Origin: an uncultured Clostridia bacterium
GTDB taxonomy: Bacteria > Bacillota > Clostridia > Christensenellales > Aristaeellaceae
Length of the DNA stretch: 21,288 nt
Direction: 5' to 3'
Assembly: GCA_937907055.1 (NCBI GenBank)
Contig: CALCTW010000042.1
Location: 1 to 21,288 of the forward strand
The notes beneath the pieces were generated by a model. That model made no database searches. It was not told the DNA's origin and was given only the letters and a program-made list of their open reading frames with translations. How positions within the stretch are numbered: the first letter of the stretch is position 1; each line of letters opens with the position of its first letter. Below, piece by piece: positions 1,964 through 12,012 of this stretch. The position numbers and the translations under genes were made by a program.

Positions 1964-1991
1964 TTGACAAGCGTAACTTTATGCATATAAT
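1964..1991 (+). promoter_or_regulatory. Sigma-70/SigA-type promoter for argF
   Basis: Consensus -35 TTGACA (1964-1969), 16-nt spacer, consensus -10 TATAAT (1986-1991), about 60 nt upstream of the argF ATG. Confidence 0.65.
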
Positions 1992-2050: not shown

Positions 2051-3034
2051 ATGCTGAAGAACCGTCATTTCCTTACCCTGCTCGATTTTACCCCCGATGA
2101 GATCCGTGAGTTCCTCGCCCTCGCGAAGGAATTGAAATATAAGAAAAAGAACGGCATTCCGCACCGTATGTGCGAAGGCAAGAATGTCGCGCTCATTTTT
2201 GAAAAAACATCCACCCGCACCCGCTGCGCCTTTGAGGTCGCCGCGGCGGATCTGGGCATGCATCCCGTCTATCTCGATCCCAAGTCCAGCCAGATCGGCA
2301 AGAAGGAGTCCATCGCGGATACCGCCCGTGTGCTGGGCCGCATGTTTGACGGCATCGAGTACCGCGGCTTCGGTCAGGAGATCGTGGAAGCGCTGGCCAA
2401 GTATGCCGGTGTCCCTGTCTGGAACGGCCTTACCAACGAATATCATCCTACGCAGATCCTGGCGGATATGCTGACAGTCGAAGAGCATTTCGGCTCTCTT
2501 GAGGGCATCAAGTTCGTCTATATGGGCGATGCCCGCTACAACATGGGCAATTCTCTCATGATCGGCTGCGCCAAGCTGGGCATGCATTTCGTTGCCTGCT
2601 CTCCCAAAAAGTATTTCCCCAACGCGGAACTGATCGCCAAGTGCGAAGCCATCGCGAAGGAGACCGGCGCCACACTCGAATTCAATGAGGATCCGGCCGA
2701 TGCCGTCAAGGGCGCGCATGTTATCTATACCGATGTGTGGGTCTCCATGGGTGAGCCGGATGAGATCTGGGCGGAGCGTATCCACGATCTCAAGCCCTAT
2801 CAGGTCAATCAGCAGCTGATGACCATCGCCGGCCCCCAGTGCCGCTTCATGCACTGCCTCCCCGCCTTCCACGATCTGGGCACTCAGGTCGGCCGTGAGG
2901 TGAACGAGAAGTTCGGCATGTCCGCGCTGGAGGTGACGGATGAAGTGTTCGAGGGTGAACAGTCCATCGTCTTCGATGAGGCGGAGAATCGTCTGCATAC
3001 CATCAAGGCCGTCATGGCCGCCACATTGGCATAA
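2051..3034 (+). CDS. argF: Ornithine carbamoyltransferase
   Basis: Carbamoyl-phosphate motif STRTR, HPTQ, ornithine motif DVWVSMG and HCLPAFHD. Length 327 aa. SD-like GGGAGAG about 8 nt upstream. TAA stop. Confidence 0.92.
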
Positions 3035-3150: not shown

Positions 3151-4221
3151 ATGAAAAAAGGGTATCTTGTACTCAGTAACGGACTGGTTTTTGAGGGAGA
3201 GAGGATCGGCGCCGAACAGGCGGCGATCGGTGAACTGGTCTTCACCACCGGTATGGTCGGCTATCTGGAAACGCTGACCGATCCGAGCTACGCGGGGCAG
3301 ATCGTCATGCAGACATTCCCGCTGATCGGAAATTACGGCGTGATCGAGCCCGATTTTGAAGGCAAGCCCGCGCTGAAGGGCTATGTCGTGCGCGAACTGT
3401 GCGACACTCCTTCCAATTTCCGCTCGGAATATGAGCTTGACCGCTATCTTAAGGAACAGGGCATCCCGGGCCTTTGCAATGTGGATACCCGTCAGATCAC
3501 CCGCATCATCCGCGAGGAGGGCGTGATGAATGCTGTGATCTGTGATGAGATCCCCGAAGATCTGACCGCTGTGAAGGAATTTGCCGTGAAGGGCGTTGTG
3601 AAGGCCGTCAGCTGCGCCGAAAAGCATGTAATTCCTGCCGCGGGTGAGAAAAAATACAATGTCACGCTGATCGATTACGGCGCCAAGAACAATATCCCCG
3701 GCTGTCTCAGCCACCGCGGCTGCGAGGTGACCGTGGTGCCCCAGTCCACGACGGCGGAGGAGATCCTCGCCGCTCATCCGGACGGCATCATGCTTTCCAA
3801 CGGCCCCGGCGATCCGGCTGAAAATACCTTCTGCATCGAGCAGATCCGCAAACTGATCGGCAAGGTGCCGGTATTCGGCATCTGCCTTGGCCATCAGCTG
3901 ACCGCGCTGGCCATGGGCGGCAGGACCATCAAGCTCAAGTACGGTCACCGCGGCGCCAATCAGCCGGTAAAGGAATGCAAGGGCGTACGCACCTTCATCA
4001 CCTCTCAGAATCACGGCTACGCCGTTGTGGCGGAAAGCCTGAACGGTGTGGGTGAGCAGCTTTACATCAACGCCAATGATCAAAGCTGCGAGGGCATGGA
4101 ATATCCGGGCAAGCGCTGCTTCACCGTGCAGTTCCACCCCGAAGCCTGCGCGGGCCCGCAGGATACCGAGTTTTTATTTGACCGCTTTATTGCCATGATG
4201 GGAGGTGCCGGGAATGCCTAA
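3151..4221 (+). CDS. carA: Carbamoyl-phosphate synthase small (glutaminase) subunit
   Basis: Class-I amidotransferase nucleophile GICLGHQ and the His/Glu pair in VQFHPEA. N-terminal CPSase small-chain domain. SD AGGAAGG (3138-3144). TAA stop at 4219-4221 overlaps the carB start. Confidence 0.92.
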   Translation: MKKGYLVLSNGLVFEGERIGAEQAAIGELVFTTGMVGYLETLTDPSYAGQIVMQTFPLIGNYGVIEPDFEGKPALKGYVVRELCDTPSNFRSEYELDRYLKEQGIPGLCNVDTRQITRIIREEGVMNAVICDEIPEDLTAVKEFAVKGVVKAVSCAEKHVIPAAGEKKYNVTLIDYGAKNNIPGCLSHRGCEVTVVPQSTTAEEILAAHPDGIMLSNGPGDPAENTFCIEQIRKLIGKVPVFGICLGHQLTALAMGGRTIKLKYGHRGANQPVKECKGVRTFITSQNHGYAVVAESLNGVGEQLYINANDQSCEGMEYPGKRCFTVQFHPEACAGPQDTEFLFDRFIAMMGGAGNA

Positions 4222-7200
4222 GGATCAATCGATTCGCAAAGTTCTGGTCATCGGCAGCGGCCCGATCGTCATCGGTCAGGCGGCTGAGTTCGACTATGCC
4301 GGCGCGCAGGCGTGCCGCGTGCTGCGTGATGAGGGCATCAATGTTGTCCTTGTCAATTCCAACCCTGCCACCATCATGACCGATAAGCATCTGGCGGATG
4401 AGATCTATTTAGAGCCGCTCAATGCCGAAACGGTCGCCCGTATCATCGAAAAAGAACGCCCGGACAGCCTTCTGGCCGGTCTCGGCGGTCAGACGGGCCT
4501 CACCATCGCCATGCAGCTGAGCAAGATGGGCGTGCTGGACAAGTACGGCGTGCGTCTGCTGGGCAGCGATGTGGCCGCCATCGAAAAAGCAGAAGACCGC
4601 GAGCTGTTCCGTGACACCATGAAGTCCATCGGTCAGCCCTGCGTGCCCAGCGAGATCGCCGAGGATATGGAGACCGCGCTGCGCGCCGCGAAGGAGATCG
4701 GATATCCCGTCATCGTGCGTCCGGCCTTCACGCTGGGCGGTTCCGGCGGCGGTATTGCCGAAAATGAAGACGAAATGAAGATCATTGCCAAGACCGGCCT
4801 TGATCTTTCTCCCATTACGCAGATCCTCGTTGAAAAGTGCATCTCCGGCTGGAAGGAGATCGAGTTTGAGACCATGCGCGACGGTGTGGGCAATGTCATC
4901 GCCGTCTGCTCCATGGAAAATTTCGATCCCGTGGGTATCCACACGGGCGATTCCATCGTCACCGCCCCCGCGCTGACCCTTTCCAACAAGGAATATCAGA
5001 TGCTGCGTACTGCCTCGCTGGATATGATCAGCGCGCTGGGCATCGTGGGCGGCTGCAACTGCCAGTTTGCCCTCAATCCTGATAGTTTTGAATACGCTGT
5101 TATCGAGGTCAACCCCCGTGTCAGCCGTTCTTCCGCGCTGGCTTCCAAGGCCACCGGTTATCCCATCGCCAAGATCACCACGCGCATCGCCCTCGGCTAT
5201 ACGCTGGATGAGATCCGCAACGATATCACGGGCAAGACCTGCGCCTGCTTTGAGCCCACGCTGGATTATGTGGTGTGCAAGTTCCCCAAGTGGCCGTTTG
5301 AAAAGTTCTTCGGCTCCTCCCGCAAGCTGGGCACGCAGATGAAGGCGACCGGCGAAGTCATGGCCATCGGCCAGAGCTTCGAGTGCGCCCTGATGAAGGC
5401 CGTGCGCGGCGCGGAGATCTCGCTGGACACCCTGAACGCCAAGCCTGTCAGCGATCTTTCTCTGGAGGAGCGGCTGCACATTCCGGATGACCGCCGCCTG
5501 TTCACGGTGTTTGAGGCCATCAAGGCGGGCGTCACGCTGGAGCATATCCATGATGTCACGAAGATCGACCTGTGGTATCTTGCCAAGTTAAAGAACCTGG
5601 CGGATTTTGAAGCCCGTCTGGCCGCGGAGCCCATGACGGATGAACTGTATAAGCAGGCCAAGAAGCTGGGCTATCCCGACAAGGCCATCGCGAGGCTGGC
5701 GGATGTGGCGGAATCCACCCTGCCCGGCTGCGAATTCAGCTATAAGATGGTCGATACCTGCGGCGCTGAGTTCGATGCCGAGACCCCGTATTTCTATTCC
5801 TCCACCGATGAGTGGTGTGAGAGCCGTCATCTGCCGCGCAGCGGCAAGCCGGTCGTCATGGTTCTGGGCAGCGGCCCCATCCGCATCGGTCAGGGTATCG
5901 AGTTCGATTACTCCTCCGTTCACTGCGTGTGGACCCTGCGGGAAATGGGCTATGATGTCGTGATCGTGAACAACAACCCCGAGACCGTTTCCACCGACTA
6001 TGATACGGCGGACCGCCTGTATTTTGAGCCGCTCTCTCCCGAGGATGTCATGAACATCATCAAGGTGGAAAAGCCCATCGGCGTTGTGGTGGCCTTCGGC
6101 GGACAGACCGCCATCAAGCTCACCCAGTTCCTCGATCAGAACGGCATCCGCATTCTGGGCACCAGCGCGGAATCCATCGATGTGGCGGAGGACCGCTCCC
6201 GCTTCGATGCCCTGCTTGAAAACTACGGCATTTCCCGTCCCAAGGGCTCCAGCGTGACCACCATGGAGGAAGCGCTGTCGGCGGCGGAGCGTCTGGGCTA
6301 TCCCGTGCTGCTGCGTCCGTCCTATGTCATCGGCGGTCAGAACATGACCATCAGCCGCAATCCTCAGATGACGGAGGATTATATGCGCCGCATTCTGGCG
6401 GGCGGTATCGAGAACCCCGTTCTGGTGGATAAGTACATGTCTGGTATCGAACTGGAGGTGGATGTTATCTCCGACGGCAAGGATGTGCTCATCCCCGGTA
6501 TTATGGAGCATATCGAGCGCGCCGGTGTGCACAGCGGAGACTCTATCGCCGTTTATCCTCCCTACAACCTCAACGATAAATTCCTGAACAAGATCTGTGA
6601 CCGCAGCGAGAAGCTTGCGCTCGCGCTGGGTACGCAGGGCCTTGTCAATATCCAGTACCTCATCTACGATGACGAGCTTTATGTCATCGAGGTCAATCCC
6701 CGCGCCTCCCGTACCGTGCCGTACATCAGCAAGGTGACGGGTGTGCCCATGGTGGATCTGGCCAGCAAGGTGATGCTGGGCAGCAGCCTGACCGAACTGG
6801 GCTACGGAACCGGGCTTTACCGCACGCCGCCGTACTGCGCGGTCAAGGTGCCTGTCTTCAGCTTTGAAAAGCTGAACGATGTCAACTCCATTCTGGGCCC
6901 GGAAATGAAATCCACGGGCGAGGTGCTGGGTCTGGGCAAGAGCATGGCGGAAGCCCTGTTCAAGGGCCTGACGGCAGCCGGTTTCTCTGTCGAGCGTATC
7001 CAGCACGGCAAGAACGGCATCTTCCTCAGCGTGGATGAGAACGATTATCAGGAAGTGGTCTCGCTGGGCAAGCGCTTCCACGATCTGGGCATCCGCCTGT
7101 ATGCCACCACCGGCACGGCGAAGTCCATCGCTTCTCTGGGGATCGATGTGATCGATGTGCCCAACCTGACCAAGAATAATACCATTCTGGAGCTCATGGA

Positions 7201-8251
7201 GCAGGGCAAGATCAACTACATCATCTACACCGGCGCTGTGCAGGACCGCACGGTGGGCGACTTCCGCAAGCTCCATCAGCGCGCCATGCAGCTGTCCATC
7301 CCGTGCCTCACCTCGCTGGATACGGCCTCCGCGCTGGCGGATATCATTGAAAGCCGCTTCACCATCGAGAATACCGAGCTGGTGGATATCAATGCCATGC
7401 GTCCCTGGCGGCAGAAGATCCACTTCGCCAAGATGCATTCCTGCGGTAACGATTATATCTTCATCGAGAACTTCGACGGCAAGATCACCTGCCCCGAATC
7501 CCTGTGTGTCAGCCTGTGCGCGCAGCATTACGGCATCGGCGGCGACGGGATCGTGCTGATCGAAAAGAGCAGTGTGGCGGATTGCCGTATGCGCTCCTTC
7601 AACAAGGACGGCAGCGAAGGCAAGATGGCCGGCAATAACCTGCGCTGCGTGGGCAAATATCTGTACGATAAGGGCTATGTGCGCAGCGAATACCTCTCCA
7701 TCGAGACCGCCAGCGGTGTCCACCGCATCCGCCTGTTCCTGAGGGACGGCAAGGTGAGCAGCGTGGCTGTCGATATGGGCAAGGCTACGCTGAGCGCCGC
7801 GGCGCTTCCGGCGGATGTGCCGTTTGAATCCCTGGTGGATTATCCCCTGAATGTGGCCGGTCAGGAATGGCCTGTGACCTGCGTGGGTGTGGGCAACCCG
7901 CACTGCGTGGTCTTCTGCGATGCTATCGATGGTCTGGATCTGCAGCAGATCGGACCGCAGTTTGAATACGCGCCGGTCTTCCCGCAGCGCATCAACACCG
8001 AATTCGTGCGTGTCATCAACCGCACCTCCCTGCGTATGCGCGTATGGGAACGCGGAAACGGCGAAACGCTGGCCTGCGGCCCCGGTGCCTGCGCGGCGGT
8101 CGTGGCCGCCACGGTGAAGGGCTATGTGGAAAAGGGCCGCGATATCACGGTCAGGCTGCTGGGCGGCGATCTGACTGTAAACTACACCGATGAACGCGTC
8201 ATGCTGACCGGCAGCGCCGTCATGGTGTTTGAAGGCGAATTTGAATACTGA
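4214..8251 (+). CDS. carB: Carbamoyl-phosphate synthase large subunit fused in frame to a C-terminal DapF-like (diaminopimelate epimerase fold) domain
   Basis: ATG 4214 is preceded by GGAGGTG (4201-4207) and overlaps the carA stop (ATGCCTAA). About 1061 aa of canonical CarB: two ATP-grasp halves, an oligomerisation region, and an MGS-like allosteric domain ending ..LDTASALADIIESRF. The frame then continues with no stop into ~280 aa that align end to end with DapF (FAKMHSCGNDYIFI .. GNPHCVVF .. RVWERGNGETLACGPGACAA). TGA at 8249-8251. Confidence 0.85.
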   Translation: MPKDQSIRKVLVIGSGPIVIGQAAEFDYAGAQACRVLRDEGINVVLVNSNPATIMTDKHLADEIYLEPLNAETVARIIEKERPDSLLAGLGGQTGLTIAMQLSKMGVLDKYGVRLLGSDVAAIEKAEDRELFRDTMKSIGQPCVPSEIAEDMETALRAAKEIGYPVIVRPAFTLGGSGGGIAENEDEMKIIAKTGLDLSPITQILVEKCISGWKEIEFETMRDGVGNVIAVCSMENFDPVGIHTGDSIVTAPALTLSNKEYQMLRTASLDMISALGIVGGCNCQFALNPDSFEYAVIEVNPRVSRSSALASKATGYPIAKITTRIALGYTLDEIRNDITGKTCACFEPTLDYVVCKFPKWPFEKFFGSSRKLGTQMKATGEVMAIGQSFECALMKAVRGAEISLDTLNAKPVSDLSLEERLHIPDDRRLFTVFEAIKAGVTLEHIHDVTKIDLWYLAKLKNLADFEARLAAEPMTDELYKQAKKLGYPDKAIARLADVAESTLPGCEFSYKMVDTCGAEFDAETPYFYSSTDEWCESRHLPRSGKPVVMVLGSGPIRIGQGIEFDYSSVHCVWTLREMGYDVVIVNNNPETVSTDYDTADRLYFEPLSPEDVMNIIKVEKPIGVVVAFGGQTAIKLTQFLDQNGIRILGTSAESIDVAEDRSRFDALLENYGISRPKGSSVTTMEEALSAAERLGYPVLLRPSYVIGGQNMTISRNPQMTEDYMRRILAGGIENPVLVDKYMSGIELEVDVISDGKDVLIPGIMEHIERAGVHSGDSIAVYPPYNLNDKFLNKICDRSEKLALALGTQGLVNIQYLIYDDELYVIEVNPRASRTVPYISKVTGVPMVDLASKVMLGSSLTELGYGTGLYRTPPYCAVKVPVFSFEKLNDVNSILGPEMKSTGEVLGLGKSMAEALFKGLTAAGFSVERIQHGKNGIFLSVDENDYQEVVSLGKRFHDLGIRLYATTGTAKSIASLGIDVIDVPNLTKNNTILELMEQGKINYIIYTGAVQDRTVGDFRKLHQRAMQLSIPCLTSLDTASALADIIESRFTIENTELVDINAMRPWRQKIHFAKMHSCGNDYIFIENFDGKITCPESLCVSLCAQHYGIGGDGIVLIEKSSVADCRMRSFNKDGSEGKMAGNNLRCVGKYLYDKGYVRSEYLSIETASGVHRIRLFLRDGKVSSVAVDMGKATLSAAALPADVPFESLVDYPLNVAGQEWPVTCVGVGNPHCVVFCDAIDGLDLQQIGPQFEYAPVFPQRINTEFVRVINRTSLRMRVWERGNGETLACGPGACAAVVAATVKGYVEKGRDITVRLLGGDLTVNYTDERVMLTGSAVMVFEGEFEY
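7397..8251 (+). other. DapF-like domain portion of the carB ORF (in-frame ATG 7397 could be the ancestral or an internal dapF start)
   Basis: MRPWRQKIHFAKMHSCGNDY matches the usual DapF N-terminus (M..F.KMHG.GNDF). A weak SD-like GGTGGA lies about 10 nt upstream of ATG 7397. The first catalytic Cys position is Ala (GCC, 7628-7630). The second Cys is present (TGC, 8075-8077). Confidence 0.7.
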
Positions 8252-8267
8252 TCCCCGTTTTTTTCAG

Positions 8268-8303
8268 GGCATGCTTTCCCATGCGGAAGGCATGCCTTTT
8301 TGT
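8268..8303 (+). terminator. Strong rho-independent terminator after carB-dapF
   Basis: GGCATGCTTTCC (8268-8279) pairs with GGAAGGCATGCC (8285-8296): 12 bp including one G-U, with loop CATGC, followed by TTTTTGTG. Confidence 0.85.
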
Positions 8304-8415: not shown

Positions 8416-8501
8416 GACTTTGTATGCTTTTTTGAGATCAAGCCCTCGCGGAGGGCTTAAACGCGACGTTTTTGGGGAGAAACGCCGTTGAAAGGAAAAA
8501 T

Positions 8502-10241
8502 ATGAAGCTGATACTCCGGTATATGAAACAGGTGAAATGGCGCATCCTGTTTGGGATGTTCATCAAATTCCTGGGAACGATGACCGAACTGATGGTGCCG
8601 TATGTGATGGAGCACCTGATCGATAACGTGGCGCCGAACAAGGAAATGGGGGCCATTCTGCTGTGGGGCGCCATCATGCTGCTGCTGGTGTTTGTTACGC
8701 GTGTGCTGAATGTGACGGCCAACCGCCGCGCTGTGCGCACCGCGCAGCACTGTACCTATGATCTGCGGCAGGAGCTTTTCTTCCGCACCCTGTGCCTTTC
8801 CGGCAATCAGGTGGATCAGATCGGCCTGCCCTCGCTGATCTCCCGCATGACCAGTGACAGCTATAATGTGCAGAATTTTATCCGCATGTTCCAGACCATG
8901 GGCATCCGCGGCCCCATCATCCTGCTGGGCGGCATCTGTGTAACGCTCACCATGGATGTAGGTCTGGCGGCCATCCTGTGCATCCTCGCGCCCATCATGA
9001 TCGTGCTGGTCTCCTGGATCAGCATGAAGGGCGTGCCTTTGTATAACAAGGTGCAGCAACGCATGGATGAGATCGTGCGCGTGATGCGCGAAGGTATCAC
9101 AGGCATCCGCGTGGTGAAGGCGCTGTCCAAGGAACAGCACGAGAAGGATCGCTTTGCCGCCGCCAATGACGAAATGACACGGCAGGATCGCCGCGCCGGG
9201 ATCGTAATGGCGCTGCCGGGCCCCCTGCTGACCATGGCGCTCAATATCGGTCTGGTCATCGTTGTGGTGGTGGGCGCGAACCGCGTCAACGCCGGTCTGA
9301 CCAAGCCGGGCGTGATCCTGGCGTTTCTCACCTATTTCAATATGATCCTGAACGGCGTGATGGGCGTGACGAGGATCTTCCTGCAGATGAGCAAGGCCAA
9401 CGCCAGCGCGAACCGTATCGATGAAGTGCTGCAGTGCGGCGAGGATCTGCCGGTGCTGCCGGAAGCGGAAGGCGAAAAGCCCGCGCGGGAGGGCATGATC
9501 GTGTTTGATCATGTGTCCTTTGCCTACGGCGCGGCGGAGCAGCCTGTGAATGAAGAGCGCCGCATGGCGGTGCGGGATATCACCCTGAGCGTGCAAAAGG
9601 GCGGGTCGCTGGGCATCATCGGGGCCACCGGCAGCGGCAAGACCACGCTGATCAATCTGCTGATGCGCTTTTATGATGTGACGAGCGGACACATTTATGT
9701 GAACGGAAAGGATATCCGTACATATGACCGCAACGAACTGAGACGGATGTTCGGCGTGGTGTTCCAGAATGACATGATCTTTGCCGATACGCTGGAGGAG
9801 AATATCGCCTTTGGCCGCACGGCGGATCCGGAGGAGATGCGGCGCGCGCTGCGTGACGCGCAGGCGGCTTTCGTGGATGAATATGAAGATGGTCTGCAGC
9901 ATGAGGCGGCCATCCGCGGCAGCAATTTCTCCGGCGGTCAGCGGCAGCGTCTGCTGATCAGCCGCGCGCTGGCCAAGAAGCCTTAGATTCTCATCCTGGA
10001 CGATGCCTCTTCCGCGCTGGATTACCGCACCGACGCGCAGCTGCGCCATGCCGTGCGCGAGCATTATGCTGACAGCACCACGGTGATCATCGCGCAGCGC
10101 GTGAGCAGCATCATGAGCCTGGATCATATCCTGTACCTTGAAAGCGGATCGGTCGCCGGCTACGGCACGCATGAGGAATTGCTGCGCACCTGTCCGGCAT
10201 ACCGCGCCATCTATGAGGCGCAGATGGGGGAGGGCGCGTGA
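8502..10241 (+). pseudogene. ABC exporter permease/ATPase half-transporter (degenerate-site subunit) interrupted by one in-frame TAG at 9984-9986
   Basis: ATG 8502 with AAAGGA upstream. Six-TM exporter domain, then an NBD with Walker A GATGSGKTTL and signature [8 protein letters not shown]. TAG falls in ..[18 protein letters not shown]... The same frame continues through Walker B (LILDD, Asp instead of the catalytic Glu) and the H-loop position (IIAQR) to TGA at 10239-10241. Track ORFs 8472..9986 and 10053..10241 are in the same frame. Confidence 0.8.
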
Positions 10242-10242
10242 T

Positions 10243-12012
10243 ATGGCAGGATTGACATTCTCTCAGAAGCCGCACAATACAAAAGGCACCCTCCGCCGCC
10301 TGCTCTCGTATCTGGGGCAGTATAAGCTCATGATCGCGGCGGTGCTCATTCTTTCCGTGATCGGCAATATCCTTTCCCTGATCGGCCCCGGCATGGCGGG
10401 CAATGCCATCAACGAGGCGGCGGCCGGTGAGGGACAGGTAAACTTTGAACGCGTGGGCTATTACGCCGTGCGTATGTTCATCTGCTATCTGTTCTCCTCG
10501 CTCATCACCATTGCCATCCATGTGCTCATGATGTATGTTTCGCGCTGGATCGGGCGCAAGATGCGCAAGGATGTCTTTGAAAAACTGATGCGCATGAAGG
10601 TGGGCTATTTCGATCGTCATCAGGCCGGTGATATCATCTCCCGTGTGTCGTATGATATCGATGTCATCACCACCTGTGTTTCCACCGATCTTGTACAGAT
10701 CGTGACCAGCGTGGTCACGGTGCTGGGCTCCTTTGTGATGATGATGATCATCTCCCTGCCCATGAGCGCTGTGGTCACCGTCACCATTCCGGTATCCATT
10801 CTGTACACCGTCTATATGCGAAAGAAGACCCGTCCGCTCTACTCCCGCCGCTCTAAGAATTACGGTATCATGAACGGCTTTGTGGAAGAGATGTTCGCCG
10901 GGCAGAAGACCATTCAGGCCTACGCCAATGAGGACCGCACCAATGACCGCTTCCGCACGGTGAACGGCAACGCCGCCGAGGCCTACGGCAATGCCGAGCA
11001 TTACGGCGCTTCCATCGGCCCTACCAATACCGCCATCAATAACCTGACCCTGGCCATCATCGCCACGCTGGGCAGCATTCTGTATATGCTGTATGAAGGC
11101 GTTACGCTGGGCACCATTTCGTCCTTCGTGCTGTACTCCCGCAAGTTCGCGGGCCCGATCAATGAGATCGCCAACGTGATGAACGAGATCTTCTCCGCCA
11201 TTTCCGCGGCGGAGCGTGTGTTTGAACTGCTGGATGAGGAAGAGGAACCCGCGGATGTGCCCGGCGCGCTGCTGCTGAGCGCTGTGCGCGGCGATGTGGA
11301 GATCGATCATGTCTCCTTCGGTTATGATCCCGGACGCATTATCCTGCATGATCTTTCCCTGAACGCGCCCTCCGGCCGCCTGATCGCCATCGTGGGGCCG
11401 ACAGGCGCGGGCAAGACCACCATCATCAATCTGCTGATGCGCTTCTATGACCCGGCTTCGGGCGTGATCCGCGTGGACGGGCATCCCATCTGTGAATGCA
11501 CGCTCGGCAGCCTGCGCGGCGCGTATGCCATGGTGCTGCAGGAGACCTGGGTGTTCCATGGCACCATCTTTGAAAACATCGCCTACGGCCGTGAAAACGC
11601 GACGATGGAGGAAGTGGTGGCTGCCGCCAAAGCCGCGCGCATCCATCACTTCATCATGACGCTGCCGGACGGCTATGAGACGGTGATCAACGAAGAGGGC
11701 ACCAACATCTCCAAGGGTCAGAAGCAGCTGCTCACCATCGCGCGGGCCATGCTGTATGACTGCCGCATGCTCATTCTGGATGAAGCCACCTCCAATGTGG
11801 ATACGGGCACGGAAAAGGAAGTGCAGTCCGCCATGCGTGAGCTGATGAAGGGGAAGACCTGCTTCGTGATCGCGCACCGCCTGTCTACCATCCGCAATGC
11901 CGATCACATCCTCGTGCTGGAGCACGGCGATGTGGTGGAGTCCGGCACGCATGCCGAGCTGATGGCGAAGCAGGGCGCGTACCGCAGGCTGTATTCCGCG
12001 CAGTTTGAGTGA
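10243..12012 (+). CDS. ABC exporter permease/ATPase half-transporter (consensus-site subunit)
   Basis: ATG 10243 lies 1 nt after the upstream TGA, with SD GGGGGAGGG (10226-10234). TMD plus NBD with Walker A GPTGAGKTTI, Walker B LILDEATS with catalytic Glu, and H-loop IAHRLST, but a degenerate signature ISKGQKQ. TGA at 12010-12012. Confidence 0.88.
   Translation: MAGLTFSQKPHNTKGTLRRLLSYLGQYKLMIAAVLILSVIGNILSLIGPGMAGNAINEAAAGEGQVNFERVGYYAVRMFICYLFSSLITIAIHVLMMYVSRWIGRKMRKDVFEKLMRMKVGYFDRHQAGDIISRVSYDIDVITTCVSTDLVQIVTSVVTVLGSFVMMMIISLPMSAVVTVTIPVSILYTVYMRKKTRPLYSRRSKNYGIMNGFVEEMFAGQKTIQAYANEDRTNDRFRTVNGNAAEAYGNAEHYGASIGPTNTAINNLTLAIIATLGSILYMLYEGVTLGTISSFVLYSRKFAGPINEIANVMNEIFSAISAAERVFELLDEEEEPADVPGALLLSAVRGDVEIDHVSFGYDPGRIILHDLSLNAPSGRLIAIVGPTGAGKTTIINLLMRFYDPASGVIRVDGHPICECTLGSLRGAYAMVLQETWVFHGTIFENIAYGRENATMEEVVAAAKAARIHHFIMTLPDGYETVINEEGTNISKGQKQLLTIARAMLYDCRMLILDEATSNVDTGTEKEVQSAMRELMKGKTCFVIAHRLSTIRNADHILVLEHGDVVESGTHAELMAKQGAYRRLYSAQFE

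Follow-up and report, generated by a model that had tools for sequence, protein, structure and literature searches.

A carbamoyl-phosphate synthase large subunit fused to a DapF-fold domain without the first catalytic cysteine in gut and rumen Clostridia

A 21,288-nucleotide stretch of DNA from an uncultured Clostridia bacterium (contig CALCTW010000042.1 of assembly GCA_937907055.1; hereafter the window) contains at positions 4214–8251 of the plus strand one stop-free open reading frame (ORF) of 1345 amino acids. It combines a complete CarB, the large subunit of carbamoyl-phosphate synthase (CPSase), with a complete domain of the fold of DapF, diaminopimelate (DAP) epimerase. We refer to the DapF-fold domain of the fusion as DapF' and to the fused carB gene as carB'. 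The fusion is an old, conserved gene architecture across many Oscillospirales-type gut and rumen Clostridia. Judged by its active-site residues, DapF' of the window is probably a DapF-fold pseudoenzyme domain, the first of the two catalytic cysteines being replaced by alanine. Our explanation for the whole, a complete CPSase fused to a selected, non-catalytic pseudo-epimerase module with a putative role in regulation or assembly, is in our estimation rather probable.

The fusion gene and its spread

The frame is open from a GTG at 4205 and an ATG at 4214 to the stop codon at 8249–8251. We regard the ATG as the real start, because it yields the usual CarB amino terminus (MPKDQSIRKVLVIGSGP) and overlaps the carA gene, which stops at 4221. 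The CarB half matches the curated models NF003671 (1445.7 bits, cut-off 599; residues 1–1048 on model positions 1–1049 of 1058) and TIGR01369 (1409.2 bits, cut-off 1027). It is composed of the Pfam domains PF25596 and PF02786, each present twice, PF02787 and PF02142. Everything by which a CarB is recognized was found: a full-length equivalog match, the duplicated pre-ATP-grasp and ATP-grasp halves together with the oligomerisation and MGS-like domains, and an adjacent carA gene. The CPSase large subunit of the fusion is presumably active. The DapF half matches TIGR00652 with 261–266 bits (cut-off 114.65) over model positions 1–268 of 270, corresponding to residues 1069–1343. The initial annotation of this DNA, made from the sequence alone, had proposed the 1345-residue CarB–DapF reading frame; it is confirmed by the curated models, which span both halves end to end.

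Canonical CarAB (E. coli CarB, PDB 1bxr, 1jdb and 1ce8) has all the domains in the same order, an adjacent and overlapping carA gene and a tail of similar length. The fusion in the window differs by the addition of about 280 residues of DapF fold directly after this tail.

Homologues were searched with a 445-residue query that spans the seam and comprises the allosteric domain and the DapF part. All of the best 120 protein matches contain both the MGS and the DAP_epimerase domain, at 56–75% identity and with a query coverage of 75–100%, full in most cases. When one genome of each GTDB species was scanned, seam-spanning homologues were found in at least 599 species genomes, and 80 loci were kept from these at least 599 matches. 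Seventy-seven of the 80 kept loci cover the query almost end to end (47–75% identity) and the remaining three are interrupted by a contig end. Both searches answer in the affirmative the question, raised in the initial annotation, whether related genomes share the domain architecture. The carriers are mostly metagenome-assembled genomes (MAGs) from gut or rumen, labelled Oscillospiraceae, Ruminococcaceae or Clostridia. Cultured isolates with the fusion are Neglectibacter caecimuris, Mobilibacterium timonense, Ruminococcaceae bacterium AM07-15 and Oscillospiraceae bacterium CM74B_53B.

Public databases already contain the architecture, under names that differ between automatic pipelines. An identical 1345-residue protein (P0121) and a close relative on a 46.8-kb contig (P0122) are found in public collections. 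Members of the same fusion family are called 'diaminopimelate epimerase, partial' (NCBI) or 'carbamoyl-phosphate synthase large subunit' (JGI, NCBI), the latter name being borne for example by P0127. A stand-alone DapF of Acutalibacter muris is also named 'carbamoyl-phosphate synthase large subunit' by JGI. Full-text literature searches for a described CarB–DapF fusion returned nothing relevant. In the searchable literature, a CPSase–DapF fusion shared by hundreds of abundant species of gut and rumen is apparently undescribed.

Active site and gene context of the two fusion types

The fusions fall into two types. The Cys-type keeps both catalytic cysteines, and the Cys-less type, which is that of the window's clade, has lost the first. 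Alignments to solved DapFs (9mro, 2otn, 3ejx and 8qzy) place an alanine of the window opposite this catalytic Cys ('kmAgnn' versus 'emCgng'); its codon, GCC, is two base changes from any Cys codon. We compared the residues of 67 Cys-less fused domains with those of 15 Cys-type fused domains and of 104 stand-alone DapF representatives, for which 1.84 billion cluster representatives had been searched exhaustively. The first catalytic position is Cys in all 15 Cys-type fusions and in all 104 stand-alone representatives. Among the Cys-less loci it is Ala in 56, Gly in six, Ser in three, Thr and Tyr in one each, and never Cys. No other position conserved to 80% or more in stand-alone DapFs is specifically lost in the Cys-less clade. 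In a neighbour-joining (NJ) tree, the Cys-less domains, 69 sequences in all, group in a single clade that includes no Cys-type member.

The rest of the pocket is kept. In the 67 Cys-less domains, N64 is found in 65, N75 in 66, N157 in 64, H159 in 66 and N190 in 67; the corresponding numbers are 67 for E208, 66 for R209, 66 for C217, 67 for G218 and 66 for Thr or Ser at position 219. N11 is relaxed, being Asp in 19 of the 67, while the other substrate contacts are conserved to about 96% or more. The window itself retains the substrate contacts N11, N64, N75, N157, N190, E208 and R209. Its residue 219 is Pro; L001, a locus 98% identical to the window, has Thr at this position, and the residue is Thr or Ser in all of the 66 other Cys-less loci. 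This Pro is either a strain-private substitution at a ligand contact or a base-call error.

The DapF mechanism depends on a thiol/thiolate pair whose members face the alpha-carbon from opposite sides (PMC12039745). In the Corynebacterium glutamicum enzyme (CgDapF), the exchanges C83A and C221A nearly abolish activity, and so do Ala substitutions of N15, N74, N85, N159, N194, E212, R213 and T223 (PMC5296763). Because the first catalytic Cys is Ala in the window and is never Cys among the 67 clade members, it is very unlikely that the fused domain works as an epimerase, as the initial annotation had implied. The family fold, a full-length hidden Markov model match and the second catalytic Cys were found; the first catalytic Cys and a DAP-pathway neighbourhood were not. 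The first Cys is a defining test for a DapF, and for lack of it the domain should not be filed as a diaminopimelate epimerase. Metabolic reconstructions may credit these organisms with a DapF activity that the Cys-less domain probably lacks.

An essential catalytic residue is lost in DapF', and fold and purifying selection are retained, as expected of a pseudoenzyme. In full-length fusions of the Cys-less clade, the mean pairwise identity is 0.708 for CarB and 0.575 for DapF' (ratio 0.812). The corresponding values for the Cys-type are 0.755 and 0.614 (ratio 0.813). DapF' of the Cys-less clade is under the same constraint relative to CarB as the DapF part of the Cys-type fusions. Between the window and L001, DapF' shows 12 synonymous and four non-synonymous differences, and CarB 53 and four. 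DapF' may be somewhat more relaxed than CarB and is far from neutral.

An AlphaFold2 model of the allosteric domain plus DapF', built on a 67-sequence alignment, has a pLDDT (predicted local distance difference test) mostly above 90 over DapF'. In Foldseek comparisons, DapF' matches DapF structures with template modelling (TM) scores of 0.85–0.91 and a root mean square deviation of 2.1–2.9 Å; the best match is ligand-bound Anabaena DapF (TM 0.91, 2.1 Å). Stand-alone DapFs (EC 5.1.1.7; PDB 9mro, 2otn, 3ejx, 1gqz and 5m47) share with DapF' the two-domain fold (TM up to 0.91, 38–41% identity), the DAP-recognition residues and the second catalytic Cys. The window domain differs from them by Ala for the first Cys, the fusion to CarB, Pro at Ser/Thr219 and a neighbourhood free of DAP-pathway genes.

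The gene context also distinguishes the two types. The Cys-type members, with 47–53% identity to the query, are from Neglectibacter, Acutalibacter, several Ruminococcus MAGs and AM07-15, together with P0127. They (P0127 and a subset of L054–L081) share architecture, seam length and seam pattern with the window, the CarB parts being about 65% and the DapF parts about 52% identical. A dapL gene (TIGR03542, about 550 bits) follows the fusion in seven of 16 Cys-type loci, and pyrG is nearby in four of them. Neither gene was found at any of the 66 Cys-less loci searched, nor was any other DAP-pathway neighbour. The carA gene is located directly upstream of the fusion in 57 loci. In 32 loci, all of the Cys-less clade and none of the Cys-type, argF lies upstream of carA or of the fusion.

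Two of the 16 Cys-type loci, L066 (an Acutalibacter MAG, 7360–8214) and L078 (Neglectibacter caecimuris, 9126–9998), carry a second, stand-alone canonical Cys–Cys dapF directly downstream of the fusion. They contain tandem dapF paralogues, one of which is fused. These were the only cases when the 6-kb flanks of each locus were scanned for a second dapF. Searches with stand-alone DapFs gave matches in Neglectibacter, Acutalibacter, Butyricicoccus and Oscillospiraceae, none of them tied to an assembly with a Cys-less fusion. The Cys-type fused domain is probably an active epimerase, since it occupies the housekeeping dapF position, and the Cys-type fusion would then be a true bifunctional enzyme.

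Some loci deviate. L070 (2715–7103) shows an independent change of Cys to Ser at the first catalytic position inside an otherwise Cys-type fused clade; the first catalytic Cys may have been lost more than once. In L057, from Mobilibacterium timonense (NZ_FUHN01000008), the motif is 'GTYDNGIRC', in which Tyr and Asp take the places of Cys73 and Gly74. This genus is outside the Oscillospirales-type majority, which suggests a possible horizontal transfer and a more degenerate site. In two low-GC (about 0.40), Gly-type loci, argF directly precedes the fusion (L027 2379–3272, L040 2376–3269); carA is not located between them and must therefore be encoded elsewhere.

Possible roles of DapF'

CPSase is a textbook allosteric enzyme, and E. 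coli CarB responds to ornithine, UMP and IMP. DapF is a textbook two-thiol epimerase and an antibiotic target. In the explanation that we favour, DapF' would no longer epimerise DAP and would have been retained as a non-catalytic module of CPSase. Its most likely role would be that of an appendage beside the allosteric domain, either ligand-binding (for a DAP-like diamino-dicarboxylate) or dimerising, by which CPSase activity or assembly could be tuned. The regulatory mechanism is the weakest step of this scheme. The initial annotation had suggested that the extra domain could be a ligand-binding modulator, and our residue data are compatible with this idea.

A more specific version is that DapF' acts as a new allosteric sensor. 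The dead epimerase would close on LL- or meso-DAP, or on a DAP-shaped metabolite such as a citrulline or ornithine derivative, and, being joined directly to the CarB allosteric domain, would couple the synthesis of carbamoyl-phosphate for the arginine branch to the status of cell-wall or lysine precursors across a broad set of gut Clostridia. We put this forward tentatively. If DapF' does sense a metabolite, the metabolism of arginine and carbamoyl-phosphate would have a regulatory input of a new kind.

Partial precedents exist. E. coli DapF activates RppH, and there too a DapF fold acts on an enzyme by binding and not by epimerisation (PMC6061855, PMC6061791, PMC4227774). The RppH case differs in that the partner is bound non-covalently, the DapF is fully active and the target is an RNA pyrophosphohydrolase. 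Yeast Ura2, a CPSase–aspartate transcarbamoylase multienzyme, contains an inactive dihydroorotase-like domain and is likewise a CPSase-containing polypeptide that retains a catalytically dead, enzyme-derived domain. It is, however, eukaryotic and pyrimidine-specific, and its dead domain has another fold and is located between two active ones.

Several points weigh against the explanation that we favour. The second Cys, H159 and E208 are almost invariant, which pure binding or a scaffold would not obviously need and which hints at residual one-base chemistry. In nine of the 67 Cys-less members a Cys is found three residues downstream of the lost one (AGNCIRC); one helical turn on, it might serve those lineages as a relocated thiol (in the window, AAC at 7637–7639 encodes Asn here). 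If the genomes with a Cys-less fusion have neither a canonical dapF nor ddh, DapF' might have to supply meso-DAP. The Pro at Thr219, found in the window only, may indicate that the strain can do without ligand binding, or may result from a base error. A fixed docking of DapF' on the allosteric domain is unsupported by AlphaFold2 (predicted TM score 0.68, pLDDT at the seam about 62). The model confirms the fold and not the docking about which the initial annotation had asked. Finally, the NJ tree leaves the deep nodes unresolved, and the Cys-less and Cys-type fused clades are not recovered as sisters in it.

Two further groups of cysteines were considered. A Cys in 'HSCGNDY' was a candidate for a relocated catalytic residue and was rejected, a Cys at this position being common in canonical DapFs too. 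The cysteines of 'ITCPESLC' are specific to the Cys-less clade and lie where the first helix begins.

The main alternative is a one-thiol enzyme, in which the Cys217-type thiol would carry out a new one-base chemistry, such as an elimination or dehydration or a stereospecific proton exchange, on DAP or on a DAP-shaped, possibly ureido, amino acid. We regard it as unlikely. It would account for the retention of the second Cys (66/67), H159 (66/67) and E208 (67/67) in an intact pocket under sustained purifying selection. The DapF fold does accept ureido amino acids, as in O-ureidoserine racemase (7vdy; E = 6e-36, TM 0.87–0.90 to DapF'), and the operon of the window makes carbamoyl-phosphate and citrulline. 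A precedent comes from the proline racemase superfamily, a related cofactor-independent two-thiol fold that appears as a distant structural match to the DapF' model: there, natural loss of a Cys marks a change of function, Cys–Cys proteins being racemases and Cys–Thr proteins trans-3-hydroxy-L-proline dehydratases (PMC4364671). In that family, however, a specific Thr goes along with a defined new reaction, whereas in DapF' the place of the lost Cys is taken by the inert residues Ala or Gly at 62 of the 67 loci and by Ser or Thr at only four, which does not define a new catalytic residue. No new invariant polar residue was found near the active-site motifs either; the clade-specific positions are mostly around the first helix ('ITCPES'). 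A candidate substrate is not provided by the gene context beyond speculation.

That DapF' is a pure scaffold, kept since CarB folding, stability or oligomerisation depends on it and devoid of small-molecule binding, seems to us quite unlikely. The degenerate catalytic site and the tolerance of Pro at a ligand-contact residue in the window agree with such a role. DapF forms a homodimer with a dissociation constant of about 22 nM and can act by sitting on a partner surface, as with RppH (PMC6061855). The near-invariance of ten buried ligand-contact and active-site residues over 67 diverged sequences would, however, be hard to explain by a scaffold role alone.

We consider it distinctly improbable that the fusion of the window is a bifunctional CarB plus DapF whose fused domain still works as a diaminopimelate epimerase. 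This reading is probably correct for the Cys-type fusions that adjoin dapL, and the window domain, too, matches the DapF equivalog model well above its cut-off and keeps the fold, the substrate-recognition residues other than that at position 219 and the second catalytic Cys. The Ala at the first position, where the clade drifts between A, G, S, T and Y and never has Cys, speaks against it, as does the near-complete inactivity of the C83A mutant of CgDapF (PMC5296763). Further objections are the Asp at N11 in 19 of the 67 clade members and the Pro at Thr219 in the window, N15A and T223A both inactivating CgDapF (PMC5296763), and the lack of a DAP-pathway neighbour at every Cys-less locus searched.

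The seam, the origin of the fusion and the surrounding genes

The junction between the two parts is without length variation, and the pattern ...NTELVDIN.MR.....F.KM..GNDYI... was found in all loci. The pLDDT of the model is lower here (62–78). E. coli CarB, a protein of 1073 residues, can be aligned with the window through its residue 1054, at '...ALADII', and its last 19 residues match 'ESRFTIENTELVDINAMRP' in length, to about '...DINAMRP'. Stand-alone DapFs of this order begin 3–5 residues before the 'F.KMH' strand (e.g. MKLRFTKMHG, MSVLRFTKMHG). The length of the E. coli tail and these short DapF starts indicate that the Met encoded at 7397 belongs to the CarB tail and is not an old DapF initiator. 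The initial annotation had pointed out this in-frame ATG, which is indeed present, and had taken the sequence after it ('MRPWRQKIHF...') for a native DapF amino terminus. This interpretation does not hold: apart from lying within the tail length, the seam codon is ATG in 58 of 82 loci, CTN in 20 and TTG in four, and a Shine-Dalgarno (SD)-like tetramer precedes it in 17 of the 82 and is missing in 65. An internal start at this ATG is thus excluded as a conserved feature, and the conserved product should therefore be a single polypeptide.

The gap-free junction, conserved in the best 120 proteins and the 80 kept loci, shows that the fusion is not a chance event or a base-call error. One 2.4-kb metagenome contig (L082 1350–1380; ENA contig k141_595306, protein P0123) has an in-frame TAG in the seam ('...ILASR*SEENTEPVDINALR...'), resulting in two separately called ORFs. 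This is the only seam-stop case seen, a single point change within otherwise conserved seam codons, likely a nonsense mutation or a sequencing error; P0123 was rejected as a stand-alone Cys-less DapF', being a fusion broken by one TAG on a short contig. Apart from this contig, only a weak SD-like GGTG in the window, 12 nt ahead of the ATG at 7397, would favour an artefact or a very recent event, be it a sequencing or assembly error, a strain-specific loss of the stop codon or internal initiation. With a junction shared by at least 599 species genomes, cultured isolates included, and by all of the best 120 protein matches, and with 20 of 82 loci having a seam codon that cannot initiate and 65 lacking any SD-like motif, we dismiss this as a general explanation, its probability being close to nil.

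The seam is shared by both types of fusion, which argues for a single origin. A stand-alone dapF of an abundant human-gut organism (L094), whose product is 59–71% identical to the Cys-type fused domains, is located in a carA–guaA–PCC–dapF–pyrG–dapL cluster. We suggest that carB and dapF adjoined each other in a carAB–dapF–(pyrG)–dapL cluster and merged once by read-through. The resulting Cys-type fusion would have kept both cysteines and probably still serves as the DAP epimerase of the cell. A derived clade, in the argF–carA–carB' context, would then have lost the first catalytic thiol and kept the second Cys and the DAP-recognition pocket. The Cys-type is accordingly taken as the ancestral form and the window's Cys-less clade as the derived one; we did not retain the NJ tree as proof that the Cys-less clade is nested within the Cys-type, given its unresolved deep nodes. 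That two abutting genes have merged, as had been assumed in the initial annotation, fits the synteny carA–carB::dapF–(dapF)–(pyrG)–dapL and the dapF–pyrG–dapL neighbourhood of the stand-alone gene. Its remark that no metabolic link between the two enzymes is known does not touch on the actual link, which lies in the adjacency of the genes. Stand-alone dapF, Cys-type fusion and Cys-less fusion would form a natural series in which the conversion of an enzyme domain into a pseudoenzyme following fusion can be studied.

In full, the cluster of L094/L095 (1–13657) comprises purA, a gltD-like gene, glnA, an ANTAR regulator, purF, carA, guaA, a PCC-domain gene, dapF, pyrG and dapL. Its carA is an 'orphan', no carB being located within 10 kb. 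Other DapF fusions are found among the database representatives P0260, P0253 and P0176: a class I/II aminotransferase–DapF (probably DapL–DapF), a DapF–Mur ligase and a 687-residue protein with a 400-residue amino terminal part without Pfam match.

The features of the window are listed in Table 1. The neighbours of the fusion are argF, carA and ABC transporter genes. From their arrangement, argF, carA and the fusion appear to form an arginine-type operon that is expressed as a unit.

Table 1. Positions of the fusion gene, its parts and associated features in the window.
Feature	Position	Strand	Basis or remark
CarB::DapF-like fusion, 1345 aa	4214..8251	+	single ORF, stop codon included
CarB part: two ATP-grasp halves, oligomerisation domain, MGS-like allosteric domain, own C-terminal tail	4214..7405 (3' end approximate)	+	profile matches; tail length per E. 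coli CarB alignment
MGS-like allosteric domain of CarB, residues 948–1033	7055..7312	+	PF02142, 46.7 bits; aligns to E. coli CarB 914–1054
Seam TELVDINAMRPWRQK	7373..7417	+	gap-free, conserved in both fusion types; essentially no linker
In-frame ATG in CarB tail, noted in the initial annotation	7397..7399	+	not conserved as start codon
DapF-fold domain (DapF'), both DAP_epimerase half-domains	7418..8248	+	TIGR00652, 266 bits; E = 6e-67 to solved DapFs
GCC, Ala at first catalytic Cys position (H. influenzae Cys73, C. glutamicum Cys83, Anabaena Cys75)	7628..7630	+	alignment to solved DapFs
TGC, second catalytic Cys retained (Cys217/Cys221 equivalent)	8075..8077	+	Cys in 66/67 Cys-less loci
CCC, Pro at substrate-carboxylate-binding Ser/Thr219 (CG[ST]G motif)	8081..8083	+	window only; ACC (Thr) in L001, Thr/Ser elsewhere
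carA, CPSase small (glutaminase) subunit	3151..4221	+	NF009475, 449 bits; TIGR01368, 424 bits; stop overlaps fusion ATG by 8 nt
argF, ornithine carbamoyltransferase, first gene of apparent argF–carA–carB' operon	2051..3034	+	TIGR00658, 439 bits (cut-off 280.85); Pfam OTCace_N and OTCace
Sigma-70-type promoter-like site upstream of argF, TTGACA-16-TATAAT	1964..1991	+	12/12, consensus match only
Terminator-like hairpin, 14-bp stem then T-run, 15 nt past fusion stop	8266..8298	+	pattern match only

Downstream of the fusion, ABC transporter genes are located on the plus strand at 8472–9986 and 10138–12012 (ABC_membrane and ABC_tran in the annotation of L001). Minus-strand ORFs at 8457–10172 (571 aa) and 10111–11952 (613 aa) are without Pfam match and are shadow ORFs opposite these genes. 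Upstream of the arginine operon lies a gene for a TtcA-like tRNA 2-thiocytidine synthetase (900–1781; NF007972, 195 bits, below the cut-off of 272 bits), which is preceded by an ABC ATPase gene at 91–867.

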